Shown here one piece after another: positions 2,895 to 61,644 of a stretch of DNA of 64,000 nt. Under the pieces are notes generated by a model that worked only from the letters and a program-made list of their open reading frames with translations, was not told the DNA's origin and made no database searches. The position numbers and the translations under genes are program-made. Origin of the DNA: Candidatus Micrarchaeota archaeon (GTDB lineage: Archaea; Micrarchaeota; Micrarchaeia; Micrarchaeales; CABMGC01). The number at the start of each line of letters is the position of its first letter. The first letter of the stretch is position 1. The DNA lies in the NCBI GenBank assembly GCA_021792095.1, contig JAJYVH010000001.1:317324-381323 (forward strand), in the 5' to 3' direction.

Positions 2895-3947
2895 TTATTT
2901 AAAGTATAGTGGGCGTGGGTGCTTGGGCGTGCGTGGTAGGTATGCGTATAGCACTATCGCACCCTTCTCAAGCCTTACGTTTATTCGTTTTATGGCATTT
3001 ACCTTTCCAGGAAGCTCGTTGTATATCTTGTTTCTAAGCGCCCTTGAAAAGGAATACTTGATGATGTCGTCGTCTTCGTAGCGCTCGGAGGTCTTCTTCA
3101 TTAAAGGTATTCTTTCCTTGTAGCTTATGCGTCCATTGGACTGCTTTAAGTTTAACACCTTCATGGCGTCTTTTGAGAGTTCCGCAGTATTTACACTGAT
3201 TTTTATTTTATGAGATGCAAGCTGAGGTTGTTTGAGAGGATGAGGCTTTCCATCCTTGAAGTTCATAAGTTTGTATTCAGTCTTCTTTTTGTTGTAGCTT
3301 GATCCCCAGTGCTCCAGTGACCAGATTGGCAGATGCTGGTCTAGCATGTATATCTTGCTCTTAATCCTGATTCCTGCTGCAACATGCCCAGGGGAGAAAG
3401 CAAAATATATCTCGTTCTTGACATACAGGTTTAAGAGCAGGCATGCTGTCAGCTTTGCATAATCTCTGCATACCCCTAGTTTATACTTTATAACCTTCTC
3501 AACAGGTAGGCTGGGCTGAAGGGAATACCAGACAAACCTGAATAATGTTACAACTTTGTTTTTATCTTCCAGGTTGAAGATATGCGTGTTCCATATTAGG
3601 AGCATGACGATTCCGATGAATGCTGACAAGAACATGCCAAATGTCAGGATAACTAGGTTCCTTATTAGATAGATATCTGCTGTTGAATAGATGGCAGGAT
3701 TAATCGGATGAAAAATTGTGAAGACAGCCCAGACGCAGAATATAAACAGGAACCCGAAGCTTATAATCAAAGACCAAGGAGCAAGGGGCCATCGCTCAGT
3801 CCAAAAGTATATGTTCTTGTCTTGCCACTCTAAAATATTAGTCAGTGTCTCTTTGTCTGAGTTACCTTTGAGCTTTTTGGCTAGGCGCATGACCTCCTTG
3901 TCCTTGAGTTCCTTTAAGGTTGGGTGATATCCAATATCCTTGTCCAT
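2895..3947 (-). CDS. transglutaminase-like (papain-fold Cys-His-Asp core) polytopic membrane protein
   Basis: 350-aa ORF in the AT-rich island. It has a central cluster of TM helices. GVCRDYAKLTACLLLN followed by PGHVAAGIRI resembles the transglutaminase-like core Cys and His. Confidence 0.55.
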   Translation of the reverse strand: MDKDIGYHPTLKELKDKEVMRLAKKLKGNSDKETLTNILEWQDKNIYFWTERWPLAPWSLIISFGFLFIFCVWAVFTIFHPINPAIYSTADIYLIRNLVILTFGMFLSAFIGIVMLLIWNTHIFNLEDKNKVVTLFRFVWYSLQPSLPVEKVIKYKLGVCRDYAKLTACLLLNLYVKNEIYFAFSPGHVAAGIRIKSKIYMLDQHLPIWSLEHWGSSYNKKKTEYKLMNFKDGKPHPLKQPQLASHKIKISVNTAELSKDAMKVLNLKQSNGRISYKERIPLMKKTSERYEDDDIIKYSFSRALRNKIYNELPGKVNAIKRINVRLEKGAIVLYAYLPRTPKHPRPLYFK

Positions 3948-5789: not shown

Positions 5790-6591
5790 TGGTAAGCTCG
5801 AAATAGCGGTTGGAGGTAGCTCCGTGGCCTATGACCCTAAGGAGCTTCCTTGCGGAGTCATCGGTCATAGGCTTATCCTTGCCCTTGCTACTGCCTATCT
5901 GCCTCTAGATTATCTGGTCGTCCCTTAAGTCCTTTATGGCATTCAGGTAGGTTACGGTCAGCGAGACTGACATAAGCAGCGGTACCTTCCTCCAGCCTGT
6001 CTTGCCCGTTATTGTGAGCTTCGCTGGCTGCACTGTCAGGTCTAAGTCTTTCTTCCTGACTCCCATTATCTCCCCTATCCTGCAGCCTGTTTCATATAAG
6101 AGGCTAAGGAAGAACTTGTCCCTGAGGTTTATGGCTGCGTCCAGCATCTTAACGATTTCCTGTTCCGTGAGTATGTTGTCTGGCATAAGGTTCTTTCTGG
6201 TTTTGTTCGTTATTTTCATCCAGGCTGTCACTGGGGGCTGATATACGCCCTCTCCCAACAGCTCCTTGTAGAAAACCTTCCAGACCGCCTGGAAATGGAG
6301 CCTGGATTCCATGCTATATGGCGGATCGCAGGAGTTTATGAACGCTGCGGCCTTTTCCATATCCCGTTTTGTTACCTCCTTTAGGTCTTTGTCATAACCT
6401 AGGGCCTCCATCAGCTTTAGAATGCCGTAAATATGCCGTATAACGCTACGTGGGTGCATATTCTTGGCCTTTAGCAGTGTTACGTGGTCTTCGATATAGC
6501 GCCTATTTTGCGCAATTATACGCACGTCAGCTAAAACCCTGTCATAGAGGCGGTTGGCCAGCCTTTGCCAATAGTCGATGTCGTTTGTCAT
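5790..6591 (-). pseudogene. tyrosine recombinase/integrase, decayed (in-frame TAG and missing catalytic region)
   Basis: ORF 5905-6591 carries the box I motif ETGCRIGEI and LTITGKTGWRKVPL, then stops at TAG. The same frame continues after 12 codons as ...DDSARKLLRVIGHGATSNRY, which resembles the LGH...Y C-terminal box. No HxxR box is present. Confidence 0.7.
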
Positions 6592-6654: not shown

Positions 6655-6668
6655 CCATCGCCCGAAGC
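6655..6668 (+). repeat. att-like direct repeat, tRNA-proximal copy
   Basis: CATCGCCCGAAGCA. Positions 6658-6668 are the 3' end of tRNA-Asn. Confidence 0.8.
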
Positions 6669-6729
6669 AGGGATCGGACCTGCGACCTACTGGTTAACAG
6701 CCAGCCGCTCTACCGCTGAGCTATTCGGG
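6658..6729 (-). tRNA. tRNA-Asn(GTT)
   Basis: Manual cloverleaf: acceptor GCCCGAA/TTCGGGC, anticodon stem-loop GCTGG-CTGTTAA-CCAGT, T arm GCAGG-TCCGATC-CCTGC. No CCA is encoded. Confidence 0.9.
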
Positions 6730-6740
6730 CATGAAAAGGC

Positions 6741-8862: not shown

Positions 8863-9192
8863 TCAATGCACCCTGCTTCCCTGCTCTATCTCGCGGTCCG
8901 GCACCAGTATGGCTAGCGCGCCCTCGTTCTCGGCGGCGAGCAGCATGCCGTTGGACTCCACGTTGCCTATCAGCTTCGGTTCCAGGTTCACTATGCACGC
9001 TATCTTCTTCCCGAGCAGCTCCTCCTGCGTGTACCTGTCCCTTATTCCGGCGACTATCGTGCGCTCGCCAAGCTCCTTGCCCAGGTCCAGCCTGAGTATG
9101 TACATCGGGCTCCGCGCCTTCTCGTGCGCCTGGACGCCGATTATCTTCGCTATCCTTATGTCCATGTTTTTGAATTCTTCTATACTAACCAT
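8863..9192 (-). CDS. stand-alone tRNA-binding domain protein (Trbp111/CsaA/MetRS C-terminal-like OB fold)
   Basis: 109 aa: FKNMDIRIAKIIGVQAHEKARSPMYILRLDLG...IVAGIRDRY...LLGKKIACIVNLEPKLIGNVESNGMLLAA. Confidence 0.8.
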   Translation of the reverse strand: MVSIEEFKNMDIRIAKIIGVQAHEKARSPMYILRLDLGKELGERTIVAGIRDRYTQEELLGKKIACIVNLEPKLIGNVESNGMLLAAENEGALAILVPDREIEQGSRVH

Positions 9193-9235
9193 ATTATCGG
9201 CTTACAATCGTATGTAAGCCTTATTAGTGTTGGTC

Positions 9236-9775
9236 ATGCGCGCATTCATAGCCGTAGACATTCCGGATGACATAAAGGTGAGGCTGCTCGCTGCTGCCGC
9301 CGACCTGCCCGGCGACGGCATCGTCCCGGTAAAAAAAGAGGCGATGCACATAACGCTCCATTTCCTCGGCGAGCTGGACGCGAAGGGCGTGGCATCGGCG
9401 AAGGAGGCGCTGCAGTGCTTGGAGACAAGGCCGTTCGAAGCGGCTCTCGCCGGCGTCTCGTGCTTCAATCCCGACTTCATAAAAATAGTATTCGCGAAGG
9501 TCTCGCAGGGAGCCGAGACGTTCTCCGCGGCGTACGCCTCCCTTGCCGAGGAGCTCTCCGGCCGCGGACTCGCTCTGGAGGGCAGGGCCTACACGCCCCA
9601 CGCGACTCTGGCGAGGGTGAAGTATGTGGCTGACAGGGATGCGCTGCTGGGAGCCATAAGCAGGCTCGACGGCACAGGGTTTGGCTCCTTCCATGTGGGT
9701 TCCATGGCCCTGAAGGAGAGCGTGCTCACCAGACAGGGGCCCGTGTACAACACGCTATACGAACTCCAGCTCTGA
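9236..9775 (+). CDS. thpR: RNA 2',3'-cyclic phosphodiesterase (2H phosphoesterase, ThpR/LigT)
   Basis: Two HxT motifs (HITLHF and HATLAR) at the expected spacing. ATG at 9236 lies within ORF 9227-9775. Confidence 0.85.
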   Translation: MRAFIAVDIPDDIKVRLLAAAADLPGDGIVPVKKEAMHITLHFLGELDAKGVASAKEALQCLETRPFEAALAGVSCFNPDFIKIVFAKVSQGAETFSAAYASLAEELSGRGLALEGRAYTPHATLARVKYVADRDALLGAISRLDGTGFGSFHVGSMALKESVLTRQGPVYNTLYELQL

Positions 9776-12118: not shown

Positions 12119-12319
12119 ATGATGATACCAGTGCGTTGTTTCTCCTGCGGGCAGGTAGTGGCGGACAAGTGGGAGGAATTCAACAAGAGAGCGAACCAGA
12201 ACGGCGAGGACCCGGGCAAGGTGCTCGACGACCTAGGCGTAAAGAGGTACTGCTGCAGGCGCATGCTTATAAGTCACGTCGATCTAATAGACGAGATAAT
12301 CGGCTACGGAAGGAGCTGA
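12119..12319 (+). CDS. rpoN: DNA-directed RNA polymerase subunit N (Rpo10)
   Basis: 66 aa: [13 protein letters not shown]...YCCRRML zinc motif. Confidence 0.95.
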
Positions 12320-12363
12320 TTGGAAGATAGGAATAAGAACATCGTGTGCCTATAGGCTAGCGC

Positions 12364-12452
12364 GGGGCTGTCGGCTAGCTTGGTTAGGCTTTGTGCCTAG
12401 GGCGCACAAGACCCGAGTTCAAAAGTGAAAACTGAAAATCTCGGCGGCCCCG
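12364..12452 (+). tRNA. tRNA-Pro (anticodon reads AGG as sequenced) with a 15-nt intron in the T-loop
   Basis: Acceptor GGGGCTG/CGGCCCC. Anticodon stem-loop TGTGC-CTAGGGC-GCACA. T stem CCGAG/CTCGG encloses TTCAAAAGTGAAAACTGAAAAT. Removing 12424-12438 restores the canonical TTCAAAT loop. The position after rpoN matches the tRNA-Pro synteny I recall from other archaea. Confidence 0.7.
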
Positions 12453-12474: not shown

Positions 12475-13089
12475 ATGGCTAAGGAAACGCTCATAGAAGA
12501 GACAGAGTATTCGTACTCGCACATACAGTCGGGCACCATGATACGCATGCCGGGCATGAAGAGGTTCATAAGCTCGAGGCGCGGCGACGGGCTGTACCTG
12601 CTTAAGCTCGACGTGATCGACGAAAGGATAAAGGCCGCGGCAAGGATGCTCGCCGCATACGACAGCAAGGGCGTGGTGGTCACAGCTTCCAGGATATACG
12701 CGATAACTCCGGCGAAGAAGTTCGCCGAGCTCACGGGCACGCGCCTGGTGGAGGGCAGGGTGATGCCGGGCACTTTCACGAACCCGAACAGGAAGGATTT
12801 CACCGAGCCGGAGCTCATACTGGTGAGCGACACCAGGAACGAGAGACAGGCGGTGAGGGAGGCCAGCAAGACGAACGTGCCCATAATAGCGCTCTGCGAC
12901 ACAGACAACTGGATAAAGTACGTCGACCTGGTGATACCGTGCAACAACAAGAGCAGGCGCTCGCTCGCGCTCGTCTACTGGCTGCTAGCCAGGGAGTACC
13001 TGAAGGAGAAAGGCCTGATAAAGGGCAACGACGAGTTCAAGCCCAGCATCTCCGACTTCGAGGCGAAGGTAGAGATAAGGATGAAGTAG
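12475..13089 (+). CDS. rps2: 30S ribosomal protein uS2
   Basis: 204 aa: ...EPELILVSDTRNERQAVREASKTNVPIIALCDTDN... Confidence 0.95.
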   Translation: MAKETLIEETEYSYSHIQSGTMIRMPGMKRFISSRRGDGLYLLKLDVIDERIKAAARMLAAYDSKGVVVTASRIYAITPAKKFAELTGTRLVEGRVMPGTFTNPNRKDFTEPELILVSDTRNERQAVREASKTNVPIIALCDTDNWIKYVDLVIPCNNKSRRSLALVYWLLAREYLKEKGLIKGNDEFKPSISDFEAKVEIRMK

Positions 13090-25528: not shown

Positions 25529-25791
25529 GCAGCAGGAGCCCGCTTTGCCACGCGCATATGCGCAAGGTTGTCTACGCTTCTGCTCCGCCCTGTATCTACA
25601 GAGCACAGCGACATATATTTAGGGTTGCTCCTTCCGGCCTGGCCCGGTTCGTACATGATACCGCCACTGTAGGCAGGGCATCGACGCTTCGGCGCAGGTC
25701 TCGCGCACGTGCGCGCGACGCCGTTGGCATCCGGCCCGCCTGAAGGGGATTTGCGGAAAGGGAAACCCCTAGCTTCCCGCCTTCCTGCTGC
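25529..25791 (-). ncRNA. candidate signal recognition particle RNA (7S/SRP RNA)
   Basis: The minus strand of 25622-25645 reads GGGCCAGGCCGGAAGGAGCAACCC: a GGAA tetraloop with AGG/AGCA flanks, like SRP helix 8. A 9-bp terminal helix pairs GCAGCAGGA (25783-25791) with UCCUGCUGC (25529-37). Nested long-range pairing is present. A TATA-like TTCTTAAA lies ~26 nt upstream of the predicted 5' end. Confidence 0.55.
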
Positions 25792-41672: not shown

Positions 41673-43226
41673 ATGGAGCAGCATAATAAGAGCGAACTGA
41701 GGGACAAGCACTGGTCGGAGCTGCTGGCCGATCGCGTCATAAGCGAGAAGAAGCCGCCCTACATCGTGACGGGAGGCATGACGACGAGTGGGCCCGCGCA
41801 CCTTGGCACCGTCTGCGAATTTCTCTACCCTGCGATGCTTGGAGATGTGCTGAAAGGCAAGGGCCATGGCGTCAAAGTGTTCTTCGTGGCGGACATACTG
41901 GATGCCTTTGACGGAATACCTGTTGAGATGCAAGAGTATGCGAAAGAGCTGGAGCCCGAATTGGGCAAGCCGCTGTCCGATGTGCGCGACCCGTTGGGGT
42001 GCCACCAGTCTTTCGGGGAGCACTACCTGTCGCAGGCGCTGGAGATAATGAAGCTGATGCGGCTCGAGCTTACCGTAGTCAGGGCGCCAGAGCTCTACAC
42101 CAGCGGTGCTTTTGACGGCTACACAAGGCTATTCTTGACGGAGGAGAAAAAGACCAAGGAGGTGGTGGCGCGGACCTCCTTCAGGAAGGTCGAGGACTTC
42201 AAGGACTGGAGCCCGATAATGCCTGTTTGCGAGAAATGCGGCAAGATAGCCACTACTAGAGTGACGTGGCATTCCGAAGACGAGTACGAGTATGTCTGCG
42301 ACCGCGACGTGAAGTACACCAAGGGCTGCGGCTACAGGGGCAGGGCGAGGATAAGCGACCACAGGTACAAGCTGCAATGGAGGCTGCACTGGCCGTGCTG
42401 GCAGGCGCACTTCGAGTCCAGCATCGAGGGCAGCGGTGTCGACCACATGACGCGCGGAGGGAGCGCGGACACAGCGATCGCAGTCCACAGGGAGCTGTTC
42501 AACAGGGAGCCGCTGATACTGTTCAAGTACGGCTTCGTGCTCTTCGAGGGCAAAAAATTCTCCAAGTCCAAGGGCATAGGCATGGGTGCCCTCGAACTCC
42601 TGCGCTTCCTGCCACCCGAACTGCTGAAGTACCTGCTCGTGGTGCCCAACGTGCAGCAGAACAAGGACATCAACCCCACCGGCGACAGCATGCTCAGGCT
42701 CTACGAAGACGCGGAGCGCATAAGCAGGCTCGAGAAGCCCGAGGACAGGGCCGACGAGAAGAAGATGCAGGCTTTCGGGTTCGCGGTGAAGAGGCTGGCG
42801 TGGCGTGCGCCCTTTGTCGACATGCTGCTCAACTACCAGATCTACAGGGACTGGGGCAAGGTGGGAGAACTGCTCGGCGACAGGGAGGGTGTTGCGTATC
42901 TAGCGCCGTACATAACAGAATGGCTCTCGCGCGGCATGGCGCCCGAGCAGTACAACTTCGCGCTCAAGCAGGGCAGGGTGGACGCTGACGAGCAGAAAAT
43001 CGCAATAGCCGTGCTGATAGGCAAGCTCAAGGACGGGATGGATGCGGTGCAGGTGCACAATCTCATATACGAGGCCGCAGAGGAGAGCGGCGTCGGCGCC
43101 GAAGTGCTGTTCGCCGCTGTTTACAAGGCCATGATAGGCAAGGAAAAGGGCCCGAGGCTGGGAAAACTCATAGTTGCCGTCGGCGTTTCGAAAACAAAAG
43201 ACATGCTTGCGACTGCGACTGCCTAG
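41673..43226 (+). CDS. lysK: lysyl-tRNA synthetase, class I
   Basis: HWSELLADRV...SGPAHLGT (HIGH-type motif), KFSKSKGIG (KMSKS motif), and the zinc site CEKCGK. Confidence 0.9.
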   Translation: MEQHNKSELRDKHWSELLADRVISEKKPPYIVTGGMTTSGPAHLGTVCEFLYPAMLGDVLKGKGHGVKVFFVADILDAFDGIPVEMQEYAKELEPELGKPLSDVRDPLGCHQSFGEHYLSQALEIMKLMRLELTVVRAPELYTSGAFDGYTRLFLTEEKKTKEVVARTSFRKVEDFKDWSPIMPVCEKCGKIATTRVTWHSEDEYEYVCDRDVKYTKGCGYRGRARISDHRYKLQWRLHWPCWQAHFESSIEGSGVDHMTRGGSADTAIAVHRELFNREPLILFKYGFVLFEGKKFSKSKGIGMGALELLRFLPPELLKYLLVVPNVQQNKDINPTGDSMLRLYEDAERISRLEKPEDRADEKKMQAFGFAVKRLAWRAPFVDMLLNYQIYRDWGKVGELLGDREGVAYLAPYITEWLSRGMAPEQYNFALKQGRVDADEQKIAIAVLIGKLKDGMDAVQVHNLIYEAAEESGVGAEVLFAAVYKAMIGKEKGPRLGKLIVAVGVSKTKDMLATATA

Positions 43227-51066: not shown

Positions 51067-51264
51067 CCTGTTGCAACAGATACTATGCTGGTGCTTTGAT
51101 GAGCACACAGAGTCTTTAAAGGCGCCTTTTCGAGAGCAGGCTCTGCGCTTTTGCTTGATGAAAACTGGTCTGTTAGGTTTAACAATCTAACGCTGCCTTT
51201 ACTCTGCCCGTGAGATTGCACTTGATGCAATTGATTTGAGGAGAAGCAAGCTTGTAATGTATGT

Positions 51265-54073
51265 ATATAAACCATCTAGGGGATGACTTGGCTCTAGCAG
51301 CGACGAAAGTCGTGGCAAGCTGCGATAAGCCCAGGGTAGGCGCATGTCAACCCTTGAACCTGGGATTACTGAATTGTGCGCCTTGAATAGAGGCGCACGC
51401 AGACGCGGGGAATTGAAGCATCTTAGTACCCGCAGGAGAAGAAAGCAAACGCGATGCTATTAGTAACGGCGAGTGAAAGTAGCACAGGGCGAGCCGAATT
51501 CCCGCTTGCAAAAGCGGGTAGATGTGGCGCAGGGGCACCTCCATGCCATTAGCCGAAGGCGCTGGGAAGCGCCGCCAAAGAGAGTTACAGCCTCGTAGGC
51601 GGAAGCGGCATGGAATTCCTTGCAGGAGAGTAGCACGGCCTCAATACGTCGTGCGAATACGGGGGCACTGAACCCCAACCCTAAATATGGGCTAGAGACC
51701 GATAGCGAACAAGTAGTGCGAACGAAAGTTGAAAAGAACCCGCACGTGCGGGTGTGAAAAGACCTGAAACTAGGTGGTTACAAGAAGGTAGTGGCGCGAG
51801 GAGATGACGCACGCAAGTGCTAATCAGCGTTCTATCTTTCTTCTAAAAGCAAGAGCCAGGGAGTGTACGGTAGTGGCAAGTATCAAAGCGTAGCGAAAGC
51901 GAGTGCGTCCGCAAGGGCGCCGGGTATGAAAATGCCCCAGCCACTATTGTACGACCCGAAGCCATTGTGAACTACTCGCGGGCAAGGCGAAGCCGAGTTT
52001 ACGCTCGGTGGAGGCCTGCAACCTGTCATGGTATATCCTGTTGGGTGACCTGCGAGTAGGGGCGATAGACCATTCGAACATGGCAATAACGGGTCCCCTT
52101 CGAAGTATCTTTAGGATAGCCTTAGGTAGCTTGCGCGCGCGGTAGAGCGACCGATTCTTTGGTGCGTTCCGAAAGGAACGGCCTTGGAGTCAAACTCCGA
52201 ATGTGCGCGCTGCATAGCCTGGGAGTCGGCTGCACTGGGTAAGCTAGTGCAACGAGACTCGAAGAAGAGTGACTGGTGTTAAGGTCCCAAAATCGCTGTT
52301 GAGTGCTATTGAAAGAGGATAGTGCCATAGACACCCGGGAGGTAGGCTTAGAAGCAGCCATCCTTCAAAAAACGCGTAACAGCGTACCGGTTGAGGCACA
52401 ATTCTCTGAAGATGGACGGGGCTAAACAGCGTACCGAGACACCGGAGGCGCTAGCAATAGCGTCTGGTAGGAGGGCGAGCTGCATAGCAAGAAGTGCCGC
52501 TTTGAGGCGGCATCGACCATGCAGCGGTGAAAATCCTGGTGTAAGTAACAGCAAATACTGGTGAGAATCCAGTACGCCTGAAGCACACGGTTTTCCCTGT
52601 CATAATCGTTAGCGGGGAGTTAGCCGGTCCTAAGTCGGGAGCCAATCACTACCCGACAAAAGGGAAGCATGTCAAAATTCATGCGCCCGATATGTAGGTG
52701 TGGCGACACAAGGTATATTCCTGACGCTTGGGGATAGGTCACTAGAAACGTGCAAATGGCTGCAGAGTCTCGTTGTGAGGAGAAGCAGCTAAATGAACTT
52801 TGACCAAATTCCTGAGCCCGTGAAAAGGGAATATGCAGCGATCATATCGGACCGTACCTAGAACTAGTACAAGTGCTGCTGGCTGAGAAGGCCAAGGCGT
52901 GCCGGGGTTAAACCGGGTTAGGGAAATCGGCAAGTTAGTAGCGTAAGTTATCGACAAGCTATGTCTGTGCCTGGCTAGGCGCAGATTGCAATAACAAGGA
53001 GGGAGCGACTGTTTCGTTAAGACACAACTCACCGCAAAGCCGAAAGGCCTAGTACAGTGGGTGACGCCTGCTCACCGCTAGTACGCGAAACCCCGTTTCA
53101 ACGGGACTAAGCGCTAGCAAAGAGCGGGTCTAACTCTGAGACTCTTTAGGTAGCGTAATACCTCGTCGCTTAATAGGCGACTTGCATGAATGGCGTAACG
53201 ACTCCCACACTGTCCCAACCTGGTGCCTGGTGAACTCACTGCGCGGTGAACATGCCGCGTACTCTCAGTGGGAAATGAAGTCTCCATGAAGCTTGACTAC
53301 AGTCTGTTGTTGTTGTGCGGCGGATGCTGCAGAGCGTAAGTGGGAGCGTCGATGCGCCGGCTCCGGCCGGCGCGGAGCGAAAGTGTAACACCACTCTACG
53401 TTCGCTACGCAACTTACCATCATATGGGACAGCTGCAGATGGGTAGTTAGACTGGGCGGTTGCTTTCGATAAGGAAACGAAAGTGACTAATGCTCTGCTT
53501 ATCCGGGTTGGAAACCCGGAGTGAAGCTTAAAGGCAAATGCAGGGCTGACTGTGCAGCGAAAAGCGGGCTGCGCAGACTGGAAACAGGAGCTTACCGAGC
53601 TTTGGAAGTCCTTTTAGTGGGACTCCAAACTGTCAGAAAAGTTACTCTGGAGGTAACCGGTTCGTGGCTGGTGAGAGTTCACATCGACCCAGCCGTTTGA
53701 TACACCGATATGGGCTTAGGTCATCCCGGCGGCGCAGGAACCGCCAAGGGTCGGGCTGCTCGCCCGTTAAAGACCTACATGAGCTGAGTTAAGTCCGCCG
53801 CGAGGCAGGACGGTGATATCTACTGGGAGTGTTAATGTCAGAGGATAAGGTGCCGTTAGTACGAGAGGAATATGGCATCGGCGCCACTAGTTTACCGGTT
53901 GTCAATGCATTGCCGGGTAGCCACGCGCTAAGGGATAAGTCCTGAAAGCATCTAAGGACGAAGCCCGATCCGAAACGAGACATTATGGCGATCCTAATAC
54001 AGGATCTTGATAGGGCAGGGGTGTAAGCGGAGAGCGCAAGCGATCCGTGAGCCCACTGCTACTAACGCATGAC
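51265..54073 (+). rRNA. 23S ribosomal RNA (approximate mature ends), unlinked to 16S/5S
   Basis: 5' region GGGGATGACTTGGCTCTAGCAGCGACGAAAGTCGTGGCAAGCTGCGATAAGCC. Sarcin-ricin loop AGTACGAGAGGAA at 53858-53870. Flanked by a complementary ~26-bp stem (51238-51264 / 54074-54099). Confidence 0.9.
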
Positions 54074-55303
54074 ACGTATGTTGCAAGCTGCTTCTCTTCC
54101 TCCTTTCCTGAAATGCCTGGGGTCAGCCACGCTCGTGCCAGGCTTGAGCACAAGCAGCTCACGCCCAACGACCTGGTCGGGGCGCAGGTATACGAGTTGC
54201 TCGTTTTTAACGTGAGAGAAGCCCACTCTGGCGTAGCCCATGCCGGCGAGTTCCCCGACCACAGGCAGGTGCACCAGCCCCTGCCGCGATTTCCAGACGG
54301 GCACGGCCAGGCAGCAGCGCGCGTCGGGTCCAAGCTGGCCCCTCAGGTTGCTCAGGAACCTCTTAGCGACGTAGTCGCAGTCGGCCACTATCTTCTTCAT
54401 GCGCTCCTCCTCAGGTGGCTTGGTGAGCGAAGGCCCGAGGAATGTTTCGCTGACCACGCGCTCGACCCTTTTCCAACTGTATTTCGTGGAGTCGGCGCAG
54501 ACGAGCTTGTACGATATGCCGATGCCGTACTCCTTCGCAAGCCAGTCGAGGTTGGCTTTCGTCGCCGATACCATCTCCGGCCTTATGTCTATGCCCATAA
54601 CCCTGCAGTGCCTCAGTGCGGCCTCCATCAGGATCATGCCTGTGCCGCAGAACGGGTCTGTGACATTCGAGCCCGGCGTGACCTTGGCCAGGTTCAGCAT
54701 CATCTGCGCCAGTTTCGGGGGCAGCATGCCTATCCACGCATCCCTCCGTGGCCTGCCGTAGTCGCGCTTGGAGTAGCTGTCTATATCTTGCACCGATACC
54801 GTCCTGGCTATGTATGTCATTCCCCTGCCCGCTATTACTAGGAACTCGAACCCGTTCCCGCCGGTGAGCTTGTTGTTGATCACCTGTGCGCTGTTCAGCA
54901 CAGGGTCCTTGCCGGTCACTACCCTGACCTGTATCCCTCTTTCCTTCAGCCTCCTCTTGATCGCGAACCCGAGCAGCAGCACCTCCTTCTGGCTTGCGTG
55001 CACGCCATACAGGCTTACGCCGATGGCGACCTTGTGCGCCGGCGTGCCCTGCCCGGCCGTCGCGCTGTCAATCGCCCTGTCGAAGACAGCCGCTGAAACC
55101 TTGTTCCACTTGTAAGTGGGCACTGTGCCCACCACTTCGGCCATCTTGATCACACCACCGAGATCGCTTTGCTGAGGCATGTCTGGGCCGTCAGTTATGA
55201 TTGCGTATCCGTTGCCTGTAGGCACGACCCGTTCAGGACCCACAACCGCTTCGAGCTCGGCGATTCCAAGCTCGGGCTGGCGCCCGAGTATGCAGATTAG
55301 CAT
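54062..55303 (-). CDS. SAM-dependent methyltransferase, Trm11/UPF0020-like (putative RNA guanine-N2 MTase)
   Basis: 413 aa with the motif I sequence VTDPFCGTGMILMEAAL and an N-terminal THUMP-like region. The last ~12 codons overlap the 23S 3' stem. Confidence 0.55.
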   Translation of the reverse strand: MLICILGRQPELGIAELEAVVGPERVVPTGNGYAIITDGPDMPQQSDLGGVIKMAEVVGTVPTYKWNKVSAAVFDRAIDSATAGQGTPAHKVAIGVSLYGVHASQKEVLLLGFAIKRRLKERGIQVRVVTGKDPVLNSAQVINNKLTGGNGFEFLVIAGRGMTYIARTVSVQDIDSYSKRDYGRPRRDAWIGMLPPKLAQMMLNLAKVTPGSNVTDPFCGTGMILMEAALRHCRVMGIDIRPEMVSATKANLDWLAKEYGIGISYKLVCADSTKYSWKRVERVVSETFLGPSLTKPPEEERMKKIVADCDYVAKRFLSNLRGQLGPDARCCLAVPVWKSRQGLVHLPVVGELAGMGYARVGFSHVKNEQLVYLRPDQVVGRELLVLKPGTSVADPRHFRKGGREAACNIRVMR

Positions 55304-56068: not shown

Positions 56069-57382
56069 CTAGGGCAGGAGCCTGTCAGGAGTGCGCGGGA
56101 ATGCTGTGGTTTCCTTTATGTTTTCAATGTTCAGCAGCTGCGCTGTGAAGCGCTCTATGCCTATGCTGAAGCCGCCGTGCGGCGGCGCGCCGTATTTGAA
56201 GAAGTCGGTGAACCACCTTAGCTTCTCCGCGTCGAGCTGCTTCTCGCCTATCTGGCTTATTATCTTCTCGTACCTGTGCTCCCTCTGGCCCCCGCTGCTG
56301 AGCTCCAGGCCCCTGTATATTAGGTCTATGCTCCTCGCCCACTGCGGGCTGTCGTCGACTTTCATCACGTAGAACGGCTTGACTGCGAACGGGAACCTGT
56401 CCACGAAGAAGAAGTCGCTGCCGTACTTCTCCTTGACGTACCTGCCCAGCGCCTCCTCGCCGCTCCTGTCGTAATCGCCGCCCCTCTCCGCCTTCACGCC
56501 GAGCTCCTCCAGTATGTCGTATATCTTCGGGAACTTCAGCACAGGGAACGGCACCTTCGGCGCATCGAGCTCTACGCCAAGAGTCTTCAGCTCCTCGCCG
56601 CATCTCCTTATCACGTTCTTCACTACTGCTACGGCGACATTCTGCTCGGCCTTGATCACATCCCGCTCGTCCTTTATGAAGGAGAGCTCGGCCGCGCACG
56701 TCCTGTGCTCCGTCAGGTGCCTCGGCGTGTTGCTGCGCTCCGCCCTCCAGCTCGGCCCCACCTCGTATACCTTCTCGAAGCCGGCGAGCATGAGGAGCTG
56801 CCTGTGCAGCTGCGGGTCCTGCCTCAGGTATGCAGTCTTGCCGAAGTGCTCCAGCGAGAATACCTCGGAGCCTCCCTCCGAGGGCATGCCCATCAGGCTG
56901 GGCGTGAATACCTGCATGAAGCCGTGGGACGAGAGGTACCTGTGCATTCCCTCGAGCACCGCCGATTCGACAAGGAATATCGCGGTCTGCGACTGGTTCC
57001 TGAGGTCCAGGGCGCGCCAGTCGAGCCTCTTGTCGAAGCTGCTCTCCGTGTGCCCCTCTATGTCTATGGGAGACGGCTCGAGCGCCTTGCCCACCACCAT
57101 TATGCTCTCCGGAATCAGCTCGGGGTACTGCTTGCTCTCCCTCGTTCCCGGCACGGTGCCTTCCACCACCACAAAATCGTTGGGCGAGAGCGCGTTGGCA
57201 GCGCCCATCGCCTGCTCGGGCGCCTTCCCCTTGATCGCAGTTACCTGGATGGTGCCCGTGATGTCGCGCACCCAGACGAACCTGCCTATCTTGAGCTCGC
57301 TTATCCTGATCACCCTGCCGCCTATCCTGAGCCTGCTTCCCGGCTCGGTCGCGGCGTCCCTTATGTATGTTACTCTTAACAT
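56069..57382 (-). CDS. aspS: aspartyl-tRNA synthetase (archaeal type)
   Basis: An N-terminal OB fold, then WRAERSNTPRHLTEH (motif 2) and GAPPHGGFSIGIERF (motif 3). Confidence 0.9.
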   Translation of the reverse strand: MLRVTYIRDAATEPGSRLRIGGRVIRISELKIGRFVWVRDITGTIQVTAIKGKAPEQAMGAANALSPNDFVVVEGTVPGTRESKQYPELIPESIMVVGKALEPSPIDIEGHTESSFDKRLDWRALDLRNQSQTAIFLVESAVLEGMHRYLSSHGFMQVFTPSLMGMPSEGGSEVFSLEHFGKTAYLRQDPQLHRQLLMLAGFEKVYEVGPSWRAERSNTPRHLTEHRTCAAELSFIKDERDVIKAEQNVAVAVVKNVIRRCGEELKTLGVELDAPKVPFPVLKFPKIYDILEELGVKAERGGDYDRSGEEALGRYVKEKYGSDFFFVDRFPFAVKPFYVMKVDDSPQWARSIDLIYRGLELSSGGQREHRYEKIISQIGEKQLDAEKLRWFTDFFKYGAPPHGGFSIGIERFTAQLLNIENIKETTAFPRTPDRLLP

Positions 57383-57391
57383 TCAACCCCT

Positions 57392-58690
57392 CTATGGGTA
57401 GAGCCTGTTGCTCATCCTAGGGAACGGTATGGCGTCGCGTATGTGGTCCAGGTTCAGCAGCCACTTTATCACGCGCTCCATGCCCATTCCGAAGCCGGAA
57501 TGCGGCACAGAGCCGTACCTCCGCAGGTCAAGCCACCACTCGTAGTTGGCCATGTTGAACTTCACGCCAGTGCTCTTCTCCACGTCGCGCATTCGCTGCA
57601 TAAGCACATCGAGCCTCCACTCCCTCTGCGTGCCGCCTATTATCTCCCCGTGCCCGTGCGGGGCCTGCATGTCATCGGACAGCACGGTGCGCGTATCCTT
57701 CGGGTTCACGTACGCGTAGAACGCCTTTATCTCCTTGGCCCAGTCTGTTATGAATATCGGCTTCTTCTCGTCCTCGGTGAGCATCATCTCCTCCTTGACG
57801 CCGAAGTCGTCGCCCCACTTCAGCTTGGCTCCCTTGCTGTTCAGCAGCTCTATCGCCTGCTCGTAGCTCATCCTTTTGAAGGGCGGCTTTATGCCGGCGA
57901 GTTCCTTCCTGTCCAGCCCCAGGAGCTCTATTATATCGGCTTCTTCCTTCACGAACCTTTGGGCTATGTGGCTTACCATGCGCTCCTGCAGCTTCATGCT
58001 CTGCTCGCTGTCGTAGTACGCCATCTCCGGCTCGAGCATCCAGAGCTCGGCGAGGTGCTTGGTGGTCCTCGACTGCTCCGCCCTGTAAGCGGGCACGAGG
58101 CTGTACACGTTCTCGAGCACAGGCACCATGGCCTCGGCGTAGAGCTGCGATGACTCTGTCAGGTACGCCTTCCTGCCGAAGTATGACACCTCGAAGAGGT
58201 TGGAGCCCGTCTCCCCCCCGGCCAGCGTTATAGTGGGCGGCGTAATCTCGAAGAAGCCCTCTCCGTCAAGGAACTCGCGCGCGTACCTGAATATGTGCGC
58301 CCTTGCTATCATCACTCCTGTCATCTTCCTGCTCCTGAGCCAGAGGTGCCGCTTGTCCAGCAAAAGCTCAGTGCTCTGGTACTCGGTTATCGGGAACGGC
58401 TCCGAGACCTGCACGTTCTCGAGTGCCGTGGCCTCCAGCTCGTAGCCCGAGGGGGCCCTGGGGTCCTTCTTCACCACTCCCTCCACCTTGACGCTGGACT
58501 CTACCGTGGTGTTTTCCGCGGCCTGCCACGAGCGAGCGTCCACGTTGTTCTTCTTCACGGCTACCTGCAGTATGCCCGTCCTGTCCCTTATTATCACGAA
58601 CACTATGCCTCCGCTGGATCGCTTCCTGTGCACCCAACCGGCGAGCTCTACCCTTTTGCCCGTTTCCTTTTCGGCCTCCTTGATGTGCAT
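57392..58690 (-). CDS. asnS: asparaginyl-tRNA synthetase
   Basis: YRAEQSRTTKHLAELWMLEPEMAY, YEWWLDLRRYGSVPHSGFGMGMERV. Internal ATG 58688-58690 is used (MHIKEAE). Confidence 0.9.
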   Translation of the reverse strand: MHIKEAEKETGKRVELAGWVHRKRSSGGIVFVIIRDRTGILQVAVKKNNVDARSWQAAENTTVESSVKVEGVVKKDPRAPSGYELEATALENVQVSEPFPITEYQSTELLLDKRHLWLRSRKMTGVMIARAHIFRYAREFLDGEGFFEITPPTITLAGGETGSNLFEVSYFGRKAYLTESSQLYAEAMVPVLENVYSLVPAYRAEQSRTTKHLAELWMLEPEMAYYDSEQSMKLQERMVSHIAQRFVKEEADIIELLGLDRKELAGIKPPFKRMSYEQAIELLNSKGAKLKWGDDFGVKEEMMLTEDEKKPIFITDWAKEIKAFYAYVNPKDTRTVLSDDMQAPHGHGEIIGGTQREWRLDVLMQRMRDVEKSTGVKFNMANYEWWLDLRRYGSVPHSGFGMGMERVIKWLLNLDHIRDAIPFPRMSNRLYP

Positions 58691-58829
58691 GGTGTACCTG
58701 TCTGCTTTGCGCTGCGCAAGCTTATCTATTTTTTGTCTCTGCCCCAGGGCCCGAAAGCGCCTTGTATGCGCAGGCAAGATGCCGAGAGCAAATGGTAATA
58801 GGATATGCGTGCCAATACGTTATCTGTAT

Positions 58830-60060: not shown

Positions 60061-61119
60061 CTAGACCCAGGAGCTCATTCCTTTCTGCCCCGCTGCAGAC
60101 CTGTATCCTACCAGCATGTCTGCGAACTTCGCGACCCTTTCCTTGGAGAAGCCGTGCTCCGTGCACATGAACCTGAGGAGCGCCTCCCTGTCTGGCTTTG
60201 CGTCCTTGAGCAGCGAGTTGAACTCGCCCTGCTCCATCTCCCTCACTTCGGGGTTCAGGAAAATTGACTCTATCTCCTCGGGGTCCGCCTCGAACGATGC
60301 GCCGTACTTGGCTTCCGCAGCGCTCACCACTTCCTGCAGGCTGCTCTTGTCCCTGACCAGCTTCAGCGCTGTCTTGGCCCCAACGCCAGGCACGCCTTCG
60401 TTGAAGTCTGTGCCGACGAGCATGCCGAGCCACACCAGCTGCTCGTGCGTTATGCCCAGGCCGGAGAGCAGCCTCTTCAGCTCTATGCGCTCCGGGCGTA
60501 TTTCTACGAACACGTTCTTCCTGGGCAGCTTGCGCCTGCCCGTTATCGTAAGGTTCCTCACCGCTATCGGCGAACCGAACAGGAAAAGGTCGTAGTCCTG
60601 GCTGGCGCTCGCATAGACGCGGCCGTCCGCAGCCAGCCTGGACGCCTGGGCCTCGCCCTCGCTGGGCGCCTGTATGTGCGCTATGCCCATAAGGTCCAGC
60701 AGCCTCTTCGAGCTCTCCACTATCTCCTTGTTTATCCTTGTGCTGGCCATGGCGTGCTGCCTCGCCTCCTCCAGCATGCCCTTCTTCAGCGCCTCGCTCC
60801 ACTCCTTTGCCGCCTCCTCGCGCCTCCGGACCCTGGCCTCTATTGTGCGCTGCTTGAGCGCTGGCGGCATGCCGTCGAATACGAAGACGGGCGTTATCTT
60901 GTGCTCGAGGAGGCTCGCGGTGCGGTAGAACAGGCCAGACAGGTGGCTGGTTGTGGCGCCGTTCTGGTCCCTGAGCGGCATGCCGTCCGGCCCCCTTATT
61001 ATCGACAGGAACTGGTAGATTGTGTTGTAAGCGTCGACAGCGATGATCCTGTTCGACAGCTGGTCGAGCGATATCTCCTCCTTGGCTCCTGCGACAAGGG
61101 GCCCGAGCTCTACGGCCAC
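60061..61119 (-). CDS. fen: flap endonuclease 1 (FEN-1)
   Basis: IAVDAYNTIYQFLSIIRG...TSHLSGLFYRT...PVFVFDG and H3TH GVPGVGAKTALKLV. Confidence 0.95.
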   Translation of the reverse strand: MAVELGPLVAGAKEEISLDQLSNRIIAVDAYNTIYQFLSIIRGPDGMPLRDQNGATTSHLSGLFYRTASLLEHKITPVFVFDGMPPALKQRTIEARVRRREEAAKEWSEALKKGMLEEARQHAMASTRINKEIVESSKRLLDLMGIAHIQAPSEGEAQASRLAADGRVYASASQDYDLFLFGSPIAVRNLTITGRRKLPRKNVFVEIRPERIELKRLLSGLGITHEQLVWLGMLVGTDFNEGVPGVGAKTALKLVRDKSSLQEVVSAAEAKYGASFEADPEEIESIFLNPEVREMEQGEFNSLLKDAKPDREALLRFMCTEHGFSKERVAKFADMLVGYRSAAGQKGMSSWV

Positions 61120-61602
61120 TTACTCGTCCCCGCCTTTCTCCGGCTTTATCATGTCCCCGAGCGTTATCCTGTCAGGTTCGCGCTGCGGCTGCCTGGCGCT
61201 CGCGGGCACCTTGACTATCAGCCTTATGCCCAGCTCCCTCTCCAGCTTCTTCCTGGTCTTTTCGCTGGGCAGAGTCTCCTGTTTCTCGACCTTGGCGAGC
61301 GTGCTCTCCTTCTCGCTTATGCGCTCCGCGAGCACCTTCAGCGGAAGGGACATGCGCTCCCTGGCGCTCCTGATGAGCTCCCCGTAGTTCTCCGCAAGCT
61401 CCTCGCTCATCGCCTCCTGCTCCTGCTGCGCAGCCTGCCTCCCGCCTTGGGGCGTGGGCTGCTTCTTCTGCCCGAGCACGCCTATGACCTGCCTGCCCCT
61501 GGCGCACTTCTCGCAGGCCAGCGTCCGCACTCCCTCGAAATCTATCTCGTAGACTACCTCGGCTCGCTTGCCGCAAATCTCGCACTCCTGCATTCCCGAC
61601 AC
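61120..61602 (-). CDS. mbf1: archaeal multiprotein bridging factor 1 (zinc ribbon + XRE-type HTH)
   Basis: CEICGKRA...CEKC, followed by an HTH segment IRSARERMSLPLKVLAERISEKESTLAKVE. Confidence 0.8.
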   Translation of the reverse strand: MSGMQECEICGKRAEVVYEIDFEGVRTLACEKCARGRQVIGVLGQKKQPTPQGGRQAAQQEQEAMSEELAENYGELIRSARERMSLPLKVLAERISEKESTLAKVEKQETLPSEKTRKKLERELGIRLIVKVPASARQPQREPDRITLGDMIKPEKGGDE

Positions 61603-61644
61603 ACCTAGCCTAATATACCTGAGCTAAGATAAAAAGGTGATGCT

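Follow-up and report, generated by a model that had tools for sequence, protein, structure and literature searches.

The closest described systems are found in the ARMAN archaea. The pre-tRNA-Pro of ARMAN-2 carries T-loop introns at tRNA positions 53/54 and 59/60, arranged in the strict hBHBh' form of what is termed a BHB (bulge-helix-bulge) motif (Fujishima et al. 2011; PMC3239211, Fig. 1C). The same study reported tRNA-Pro(AGG) and tRNA-Leu(AAG) in ARMAN-4 and ARMAN-5, where the G34 synonyms were reported lacking (PMC3239211). Reviews state that Archaea have no tRNA genes with adenosine at anticodon position 34 (A34) and lack inosine at this position (I34) (PMC11066159, PMC8879553). According to the studies of Boren 1993 and Chen 2002, in so far as they are cited in PMC11066159, unmodified A34 can read U-ending codons, and C-ending ones less well.

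In the BHB motif, 4 bp lie between two 3-nt bulges, and cleavage takes place at the second nucleotide of the bulge (PMC5829648). In archaeal BHB splicing the exons are joined by the ligase RtcB; the epsilon2 type of splicing endonuclease (EndA) is known in ARMAN-1, ARMAN-2 and Mancarchaeum (PMC5829648). The three-unit epsilon2 EndA of ARMAN-2 cuts the 13-nt 59/60 intron of pre-tRNA-Cys in vitro (PMC3239211). Structures of epsilon2 splicing endonucleases have been described (PMC3488258, PMC12397907).

The gene considered here lies in a window of 64 kb, which is the whole stretch of DNA that was analysed; all coordinates are positions in this window and refer to the + strand unless marked otherwise. 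Positions 12364-12452 are a real, conserved gene for tRNA-Pro in an archaeon of the Micrarchaeota (DPANN), located between genes of the transcription and translation machinery in the order rpoD, tRNA-Leu(GAG), rpl13, rps9, rpoN, tRNA-Pro, rps2. The gene, its immediate neighbours and the parts of the tRNA needed first are as follows.

12119..12319, + strand: rpoN, RNA polymerase subunit N, the upstream neighbour (ORF list; PF01194 on the identical locus)
12332..12339, + strand: putative archaeal TATA box AATAAGAA, at -32 to -25 (A/T conservation)
12364..12452, + strand: pre-tRNA-Pro(AGG) gene, 89 nt (sequence; ARAGORN after in-silico splicing; identical copy in four assemblies)
12364..12423, + strand: 5' exon, tRNA positions 1-59 (BHB cleavage rule, PMC5829648)
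12399..12401, + strand: anticodon AGG, with A34 at 12399 and G37 following at 12402 (sequence, relatives, metagenomes)
12413..12417, + strand: 5' strand CCGAG of the T stem, which is the outer helix h of the BHB motif (pairs with 12440-12444; 100% paired, two covarying pairs)
12439..12452, + strand: 3' exon, comprising U60, the 3' strands of the T stem and of the acceptor stem, and G73 (sequence, splicing)
12440..12444, + strand: 3' strand CUCGG of the T stem (sequence and covariation)
12475..13089, + strand: rps2, ribosomal protein uS2, the downstream neighbour (ORF list; PF00318)

The proteins most closely related to uS2 of the window carry the labels Micrarchaeota or Micrarchaeia, and a copy with 100% identity sits on a contig of 772 kb; the window thus belongs to a DPANN (ARMAN-2-like) archaeon. 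This agrees with the preliminary description, in which non-canonical intron positions had been said to be known mainly from Thermoproteales and ultrasmall (ARMAN/DPANN) archaea. For comparison, 80 species-representative Micrarchaeota loci were fetched with a uS2 profile, and 76 of these have a tRNA-Pro(AGG) gene upstream of rps2. Two of the four loci without the gene end just upstream of rps2, and locus L017 is therefore unscorable; L058, L071 and L080 have no tRNA-Pro(AGG) within 700 nt upstream of rps2.

Across 75 orthologous upstream regions the A/T fraction reaches 0.9-1.0 at -32 to -25, and a second conserved A/T patch, resembling a proximal promoter element, occupies -13 to -6 (12351-12358) in the 75 loci. 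This pattern of base composition suggests that the tRNA-Pro gene has its own TATA-type archaeal promoter inside the ribosomal-protein cluster.

Other parts of the window have further features. Just upstream of the rpoD/tRNA/ribosomal-protein cluster are located a gene of the LigT/2H-phosphoesterase (2'-5' RNA ligase) family (9227-9775, +) and a small tRNA_bind gene (PF01588; ~8863-9192, -). A phage-integrase-family ORF (5905-6591, -) adjoins tRNA-Asn (6658-6731, -), an arrangement typical of integrated elements, and the ORFs flanking this integrase-family ORF have no Pfam matches. The SRP RNA (25531-25789, -) is matched best by the Bacteria_large_SRP model, at 73 bits, just over the gathering score, and not by an archaeal SRP model. 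An archaeal LSU rRNA (51255-54083, +) stands alone, no SSU or 5S rRNA being found in the 64 kb; compared with the archaeal model it has lost several helices and falls short by about 160 nt. A class I LysRS gene is located at 41673-43226 (+), and two class II tRNA-synt_2 (D/K/N-type) genes, presumably AspRS and AsnRS, lie in tandem at 56069-57382 (-) and 57392-58777 (-).

The pre-tRNA-Pro spans tRNA positions 1-73, and CCA is not encoded. Its acceptor stem has 7 bp (GGGGCUG at 12364-12370 with CGGCCCC at 12445-12451) and is followed by G73 at 12452; in the D stem GGCU/GGCU two of the pairs are G-U, the anticodon stem UGUGC/GCACA surrounds the loop CUAGGGC (12397-12403), and the variable region is AGAC (4 nt). 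The tertiary positions U8, A14, G18, G19, U54, U55, C56 and A58 are all in place. The T stem CCGAG/CTCGG encloses 22 nt and not 7, as had been read from the sequence earlier. An 8-bp acceptor stem with C(-1) pairing to G73, which ARAGORN draws, was dropped, since the orthologues do not retain this pair.

The unspliced stretch 12364-12452 receives no tRNA call from ARAGORN with intron mode on or off, and the Rfam tRNA model is silent both at the gathering score and at E<=10. Such a failure of tRNA finders is expected from an intron in the T-loop and is thus no evidence against the gene. After deletion of 12424-12438, ARAGORN calls the 74-nt product as tRNA-Pro(agg), and it does the same for 76/76 spliced orthologues. 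The preliminary description had regarded rejection of the fold by covariance models as a point against the gene; this applies only to the unspliced form, which the Rfam model misses, and the spliced product is called by ARAGORN. In an alignment of 35 distinct orthologous sequences, the mature cloverleaf is 95.8% paired, seven pairs have changed on both sides, and 0/500 shuffles equal the observed result, which, together with the ARAGORN call, upholds the original identification of the gene as tRNA-Pro. In folding, the gene has a z-score of -2.45 and the T-arm one of -2.79.

This tRNA-Pro family has a weak D stem: pair 10-25 is U.U in 31/35 distinct orthologues and G.U in the window, and pair 13-22 is always U.G in the alignment of 35 distinct orthologues. 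This echoes the D-arms with a single Watson-Crick pair reported for ARMAN-2 tRNA-Pro(CGG/UGG).

The anticodon is AGG in all 76 related genes (76/80 species-level loci), and A34, G35, G36 and G37 are invariant in the 35 distinct sequences. The identical 89 nt occur in four independent assemblies obtained from different samples. Scanning of metagenomes with the anticodon arm, position 34 being left free, gave 48 matches, all of them with A34; the scan found the body of this tRNA in no version with G34. Of the two options considered at the outset, a base-call error is excluded by these assemblies, relatives and metagenome matches, and the same three lines of evidence speak for a genuinely odd decoder. 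A34 is near-universal among the sampled Micrarchaeota, and a literature search found no earlier report of this. The tRNA-Leu gene of the same neighbourhood has the anticodon GAG, both in the window itself and at 70 loci, so A34 here is specific to proline. No second tRNA-Pro was found in the window, by ARAGORN or by the BHB screen described below, or in the 80 loci.

Loop positions 32 and 38 (12397 and 12403) co-vary: C32/C38 is found in 12 genes including that of the window, U32/A38 in 57 and U32/G38 in 6. These combinations may tune decoding by an A34 anticodon.

The tRNA-Pro(AGG) would serve as the decoder of CCU and probably also of CCC. As to the state of the wobble base, A34 is probably left unmodified, and this reading is favoured over its conversion to inosine. 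Within the window, a Pfam scan of the 57 ORFs (64 kb, about 8% of the genome) detected no CDA-fold domain, tblastn and phmmer searches with E. coli TadA (an approximate query) gave nothing significant, and neither did a six-frame scan for the [HC]AE...PCxxC motif.

Alternatively, A34 could be deaminated to inosine by a horizontally acquired TadA-like or an unrecognised deaminase, and the resulting IGG anticodon would, like that of eukaryotes, read CCU, CCC and CCA. This possibility, which is judged rather unlikely, concerns nothing but decoding and leaves the description of the gene and of its intron as it stands. CCC accounts for 213/766 proline codons in the window (28%) and for 1067/5685 over all loci. 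With 28% of the proline codons being CCC, some tRNA must read this codon well. Its frequency is awkward for unmodified A34, whose best partner is U; it would be easier to reconcile with inosine, by which CCC would be read well. The CCC reader could be a tRNA with inosine, with A-C wobble (precedents are cited in PMC11066159) or a U34 isoacceptor.

When the eight four-codon boxes are compared, U/(U+C) is highest for proline in 49/81 loci. This skew is not diagnostic, because leucine, read by a GAG anticodon, comes second, and genomes with a GGG tRNA avoid CCC similarly. A comparable proline codon skew is seen in E. coli, where a GGG tRNA is present.

Further evidence on inosine concerns the enzyme. 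The absence of a CDA-fold ORF or of the zinc-site motif from the window stands against deamination, and so does the substrate range of the bacterial enzyme, since TadA of bacteria is specific for the Arg ACG loop. The ortholog group K11991 (tadA) was scored in 2/43 Micrarchaeota/Parvarchaeota genomes, with the column identities presumed and divergent enzymes possibly missed (PMC5864196, supplement file 2). Genes similar to tadA are therefore not wholly absent from these lineages, which favours inosine to that extent; against it, K11991 is missing in 41/43 genomes (PMC5864196), and reviews say that Archaea lack I34 (PMC8879553, PMC11066159). A narrower proposal starts from A34 as a trait that is fixed in the sampled Micrarchaeota, and so extends beyond ARMAN-4 and ARMAN-5, no G34 form of this tRNA having been found; that such an A34 is converted to inosine by a deaminase other than orthodox TadA is doubtful. 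If true, it would give the first archaeal wobble-inosine system, and the use of IGG for proline, known from eukaryotes, would have originated independently.

Irrespective of the state of A34, the T-arm contains the elements of a BHB motif.

12418..12421, + strand: 5' strand UUCA of the central helix H, T-loop positions 54-57 (pairs 4/4 with 12433-12436)
12422..12424, + strand: 5' bulge AAA, predicted cut 12423/12424 (sequence; 3-nt bulge in all orthologues)
12424..12438, + strand: 15-nt intron at tRNA position 59/60, A GUGAAAAC UGAA AA (splicing in silico, orthologues, BHB screen)
12425..12432, + strand: inner helix h' (G-C, U-A) closing a GAAA tetraloop (sequence; minimum-free-energy fold of the T-arm)
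12433..12436, + strand: 3' strand UGAA of helix H, on the intron side (sequence, orthologues, covariation)
12437..12439, + strand: 3' bulge AAU, predicted cut 12438/12439 (sequence, orthologues, PMC5829648)

The helix UUCA/UGAA with the bulges AAA and AAU had been recognised in the preliminary description and is read in the sequence at the same positions. The motif had been called relaxed there, and this has to be corrected. The pairs G12425-C12432 and U12426-A12431 form the inner helix h', which closes the GAAA tetraloop at 12427-12430. In a strict motif h and h' have at least 2 bp each, and here h is the 5-bp T stem and h' has 2 bp; with the T stem as h and with h' closed by the GAAA loop, this is a strict hBHBh' motif. 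The rule that cleavage occurs at the second nucleotide of a bulge (PMC5829648) places the cuts at 12423/12424 and 12438/12439 and the intron at 12424-12438, tRNA position 59/60. Deletion of 15 nt starting from 12421, 12422, 12423 or 12424 gives an identical product with the T-loop UUCAAAU, the starts at 12421-12423 being equivalent to 12424 because of the run of A. The minimum-free-energy fold contains the T stem and the inner hairpin and is devoid of the 4-bp helix H. A/U-rich BHB helices are usually absent from thermodynamic folds; the absence of helix H is thus usual, yet it is not positive support.

The window was also screened for BHB motifs on both strands; a site had to have a helix of 4 bp with bulges of 3 nt, no fewer than 2 bp in the outer helix, and an intron between 11 and 110 nt long. 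Splicing of the 33,287 BHB-like candidates in silico, followed by ARAGORN, gave a single new tRNA, the one with the intron 12424-12438. Four other matches were artefacts within already-called tRNA-Leu and tRNA-Ser genes.

The geometry of the motif is retained among relatives. In the 72 intron-bearing genes (that of the window and 71 orthologues), helix H has 4/4 bp and both bulges have 3 nt without exception. The intron strand facing UUCA is UGAA, UGGA or UGAG in the orthologues, all of which can pair. The 59/60 intron varies from 11 to 33 nt in length, its sequence is free, and h' ranges from 0 to 10 bp. The predicted mature T-loop is UUCAAAU in 75/75. Pairing of the hBHBh' structure amounts to 99.7% in the 22 orthologues whose intron has 21 nt, 0/500 shuffles reach its score, and slid controls give 28-49%; in these genes each of the five h' pairs has undergone compensatory double changes and H is 100% paired. 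The earlier suggestion that symmetric cleavage removes 12424-12438 and restores the UUCAAAU loop is thus backed by the constant geometry in 72/72 intron-bearing genes and by formal covariation.

The number of introns differs between orthologues. One gene (L029) is intron-less, two (L028, L076) have an intron at 53/54 only, and about 15 (L013, L023, L035 and L050 among them) carry introns at both 53/54 and 59/60. In two metagenome orthologues, L094 (~916-942, -) and L123 (~3604-3630, -), the 53/54 intron is tandemly duplicated (ATTAAACGGGA-ATTAACGGGAA). This duplication may be a snapshot of intron expansion.

The following route to the mature tRNA is proposed; its splicing, its enzymes and the use of the upstream box are what we infer from the features above. 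The gene would be transcribed as an 89-nt precursor carrying the 15-nt intron at 59/60. In this precursor the T stem (h), the UUCA/UGAA helix (H), the two 3-nt bulges and the 2-bp/GAAA hairpin (h') would form a strict BHB. An archaeal splicing endonuclease, probably of the broad-specificity epsilon2 type as in ARMAN-1 and ARMAN-2, would cut each bulge just behind its second nucleotide, at 12423/12424 and 12438/12439. RtcB would ligate the exons into a 74-nt tRNA with the T-loop UUCAAAU, and CCA would be added later.

The Pfam scan of the 57 ORFs in the 64-kb window found no splicing endonuclease (no tRNA_int_endo match), RtcB, Trm5 or ProRS. A 387-aa ORF at 60445-61605, which has the length of the ARMAN-2 EndA, was rejected as EndA, having no PDB (E<=1) or Pfam (E<=0.1) match. 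The supplements of PMC12892359 contain no deaminase or EndA entries.

Retention of the 15 nt, which would leave the mature tRNA with a 22-nt T-loop or an extra hairpin, is very improbable. The GU/AC-GAAA inner hairpin is the stable part of the minimum-free-energy fold, which speaks for retention; the insert is, however, free in length and sequence (0 or 11-33 nt), whereas the BHB register is exact in 72/72 genes. The spliced product is the same in 75/75, and L029 lacks the intron altogether. The T-loop fold, onto which G18 and G19 dock, would be disrupted by additional nucleotides at 59/60. In addition, a 59/60 intron is an in-vitro substrate of the ARMAN-2 EndA (PMC3239211).

The idea that this tRNA-Pro is a decaying pseudogene, or its A34 an assembly or base-call artefact, is scarcely credible: the standard tRNA finders give no call and reviews state that archaeal tRNA genes are without A34 (PMC11066159, PMC8879553), but the same sequence stands in four independent assemblies, the gene is kept across 76 species-level genomes with compensatory stem changes, A34-G37 is invariant with A34 in 48/48 metagenome matches, and the upstream A/T box is conserved.

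The best explanation of the locus as a whole, held with high confidence, is a tRNA-Pro(AGG) gene with a T-loop BHB intron and a genuine A34, for which we infer splicing and expression. Since ARAGORN and Rfam miss the gene, Micrarchaeota seem to have no decoder of CCU/CCC unless intron-aware tools are used. The reviews deny archaeal A34 genes, yet tRNA-Pro(AGG) is present in 76/80 species-level Micrarchaeota and in 48/48 environmental matches. The tRNA-Pro family, with its 0, 1 or 2 introns, also offers a clean natural series in which introns were gained, lost and duplicated at two neighbouring sites of the T-loop. Co-cultures of Micrarchaeota exist, which makes the choice between archaeal wobble inosine and a lineage-wide unmodified A34 in a four-codon box testable.

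Both halves of this finding are precedented, as a T-loop intron at 59/60 and an archaeal tRNA-Pro(AGG) were both described in PMC3239211. The pre-tRNA-Pro of ARMAN-2 (Candidatus Micrarchaeum acidiphilum) is similar to the gene of the window in phylum, amino acid, the 59/60 site and the strict hBHBh' motif. It has two introns, whereas the window gene has the 59/60 intron only. The ARMAN-2 gene was labelled Pro(GGG) (PMC3239211), in contrast to AGG in the window and its 76 relatives; every relative with two introns has AGG, in the loop UUAGGGG.

The ARMAN-2 pre-tRNA-Cys(GCA) shares the 59/60 site and has an intron of similar size (13 nt), cut in vitro by the epsilon2 EndA (PMC3239211), so that removal of a T-loop intron by an EndA of Micrarchaeota has a precedent in experiment. 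Its motif is relaxed hBH, unlike the strict hBHBh' of the window intron. In principle, a strict motif could be cut by any type of EndA, though a site outside the anticodon loop is non-canonical; such sites are within reach of the epsilon2 and (alpha-beta)2 types.

The tRNA-Pro(AGG) of ARMAN-4 and ARMAN-5 represents, like the window gene, a genomic A34 in DPANN archaea. However, these organisms are Parvarchaeota, another phylum, and have A34 also in tRNA-Leu(AAG), whereas in the lineage of the window A34 is found in tRNA-Pro and tRNA-Leu has GAG.

Eukaryotic tRNA-Pro (AGG converted to IGG) shares with the window gene an A34 encoded in the proline four-codon box and G37. The eukaryotic I34 requires the heterodimeric ADAT2/ADAT3 of the CDA family, and in the window no such enzyme was found. 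Mycoplasma tRNA-Thr(AGU) and the A34 mutant of Salmonella tRNA-Pro, whose A34 is unmodified by nature or by experiment, resemble the window gene in that their A34 belongs to a four-codon box and no deaminase for it is known. They come from bacteria and concern single species or laboratory mutants, whereas the A34 described here is fixed in dozens of species-level archaeal genomes.
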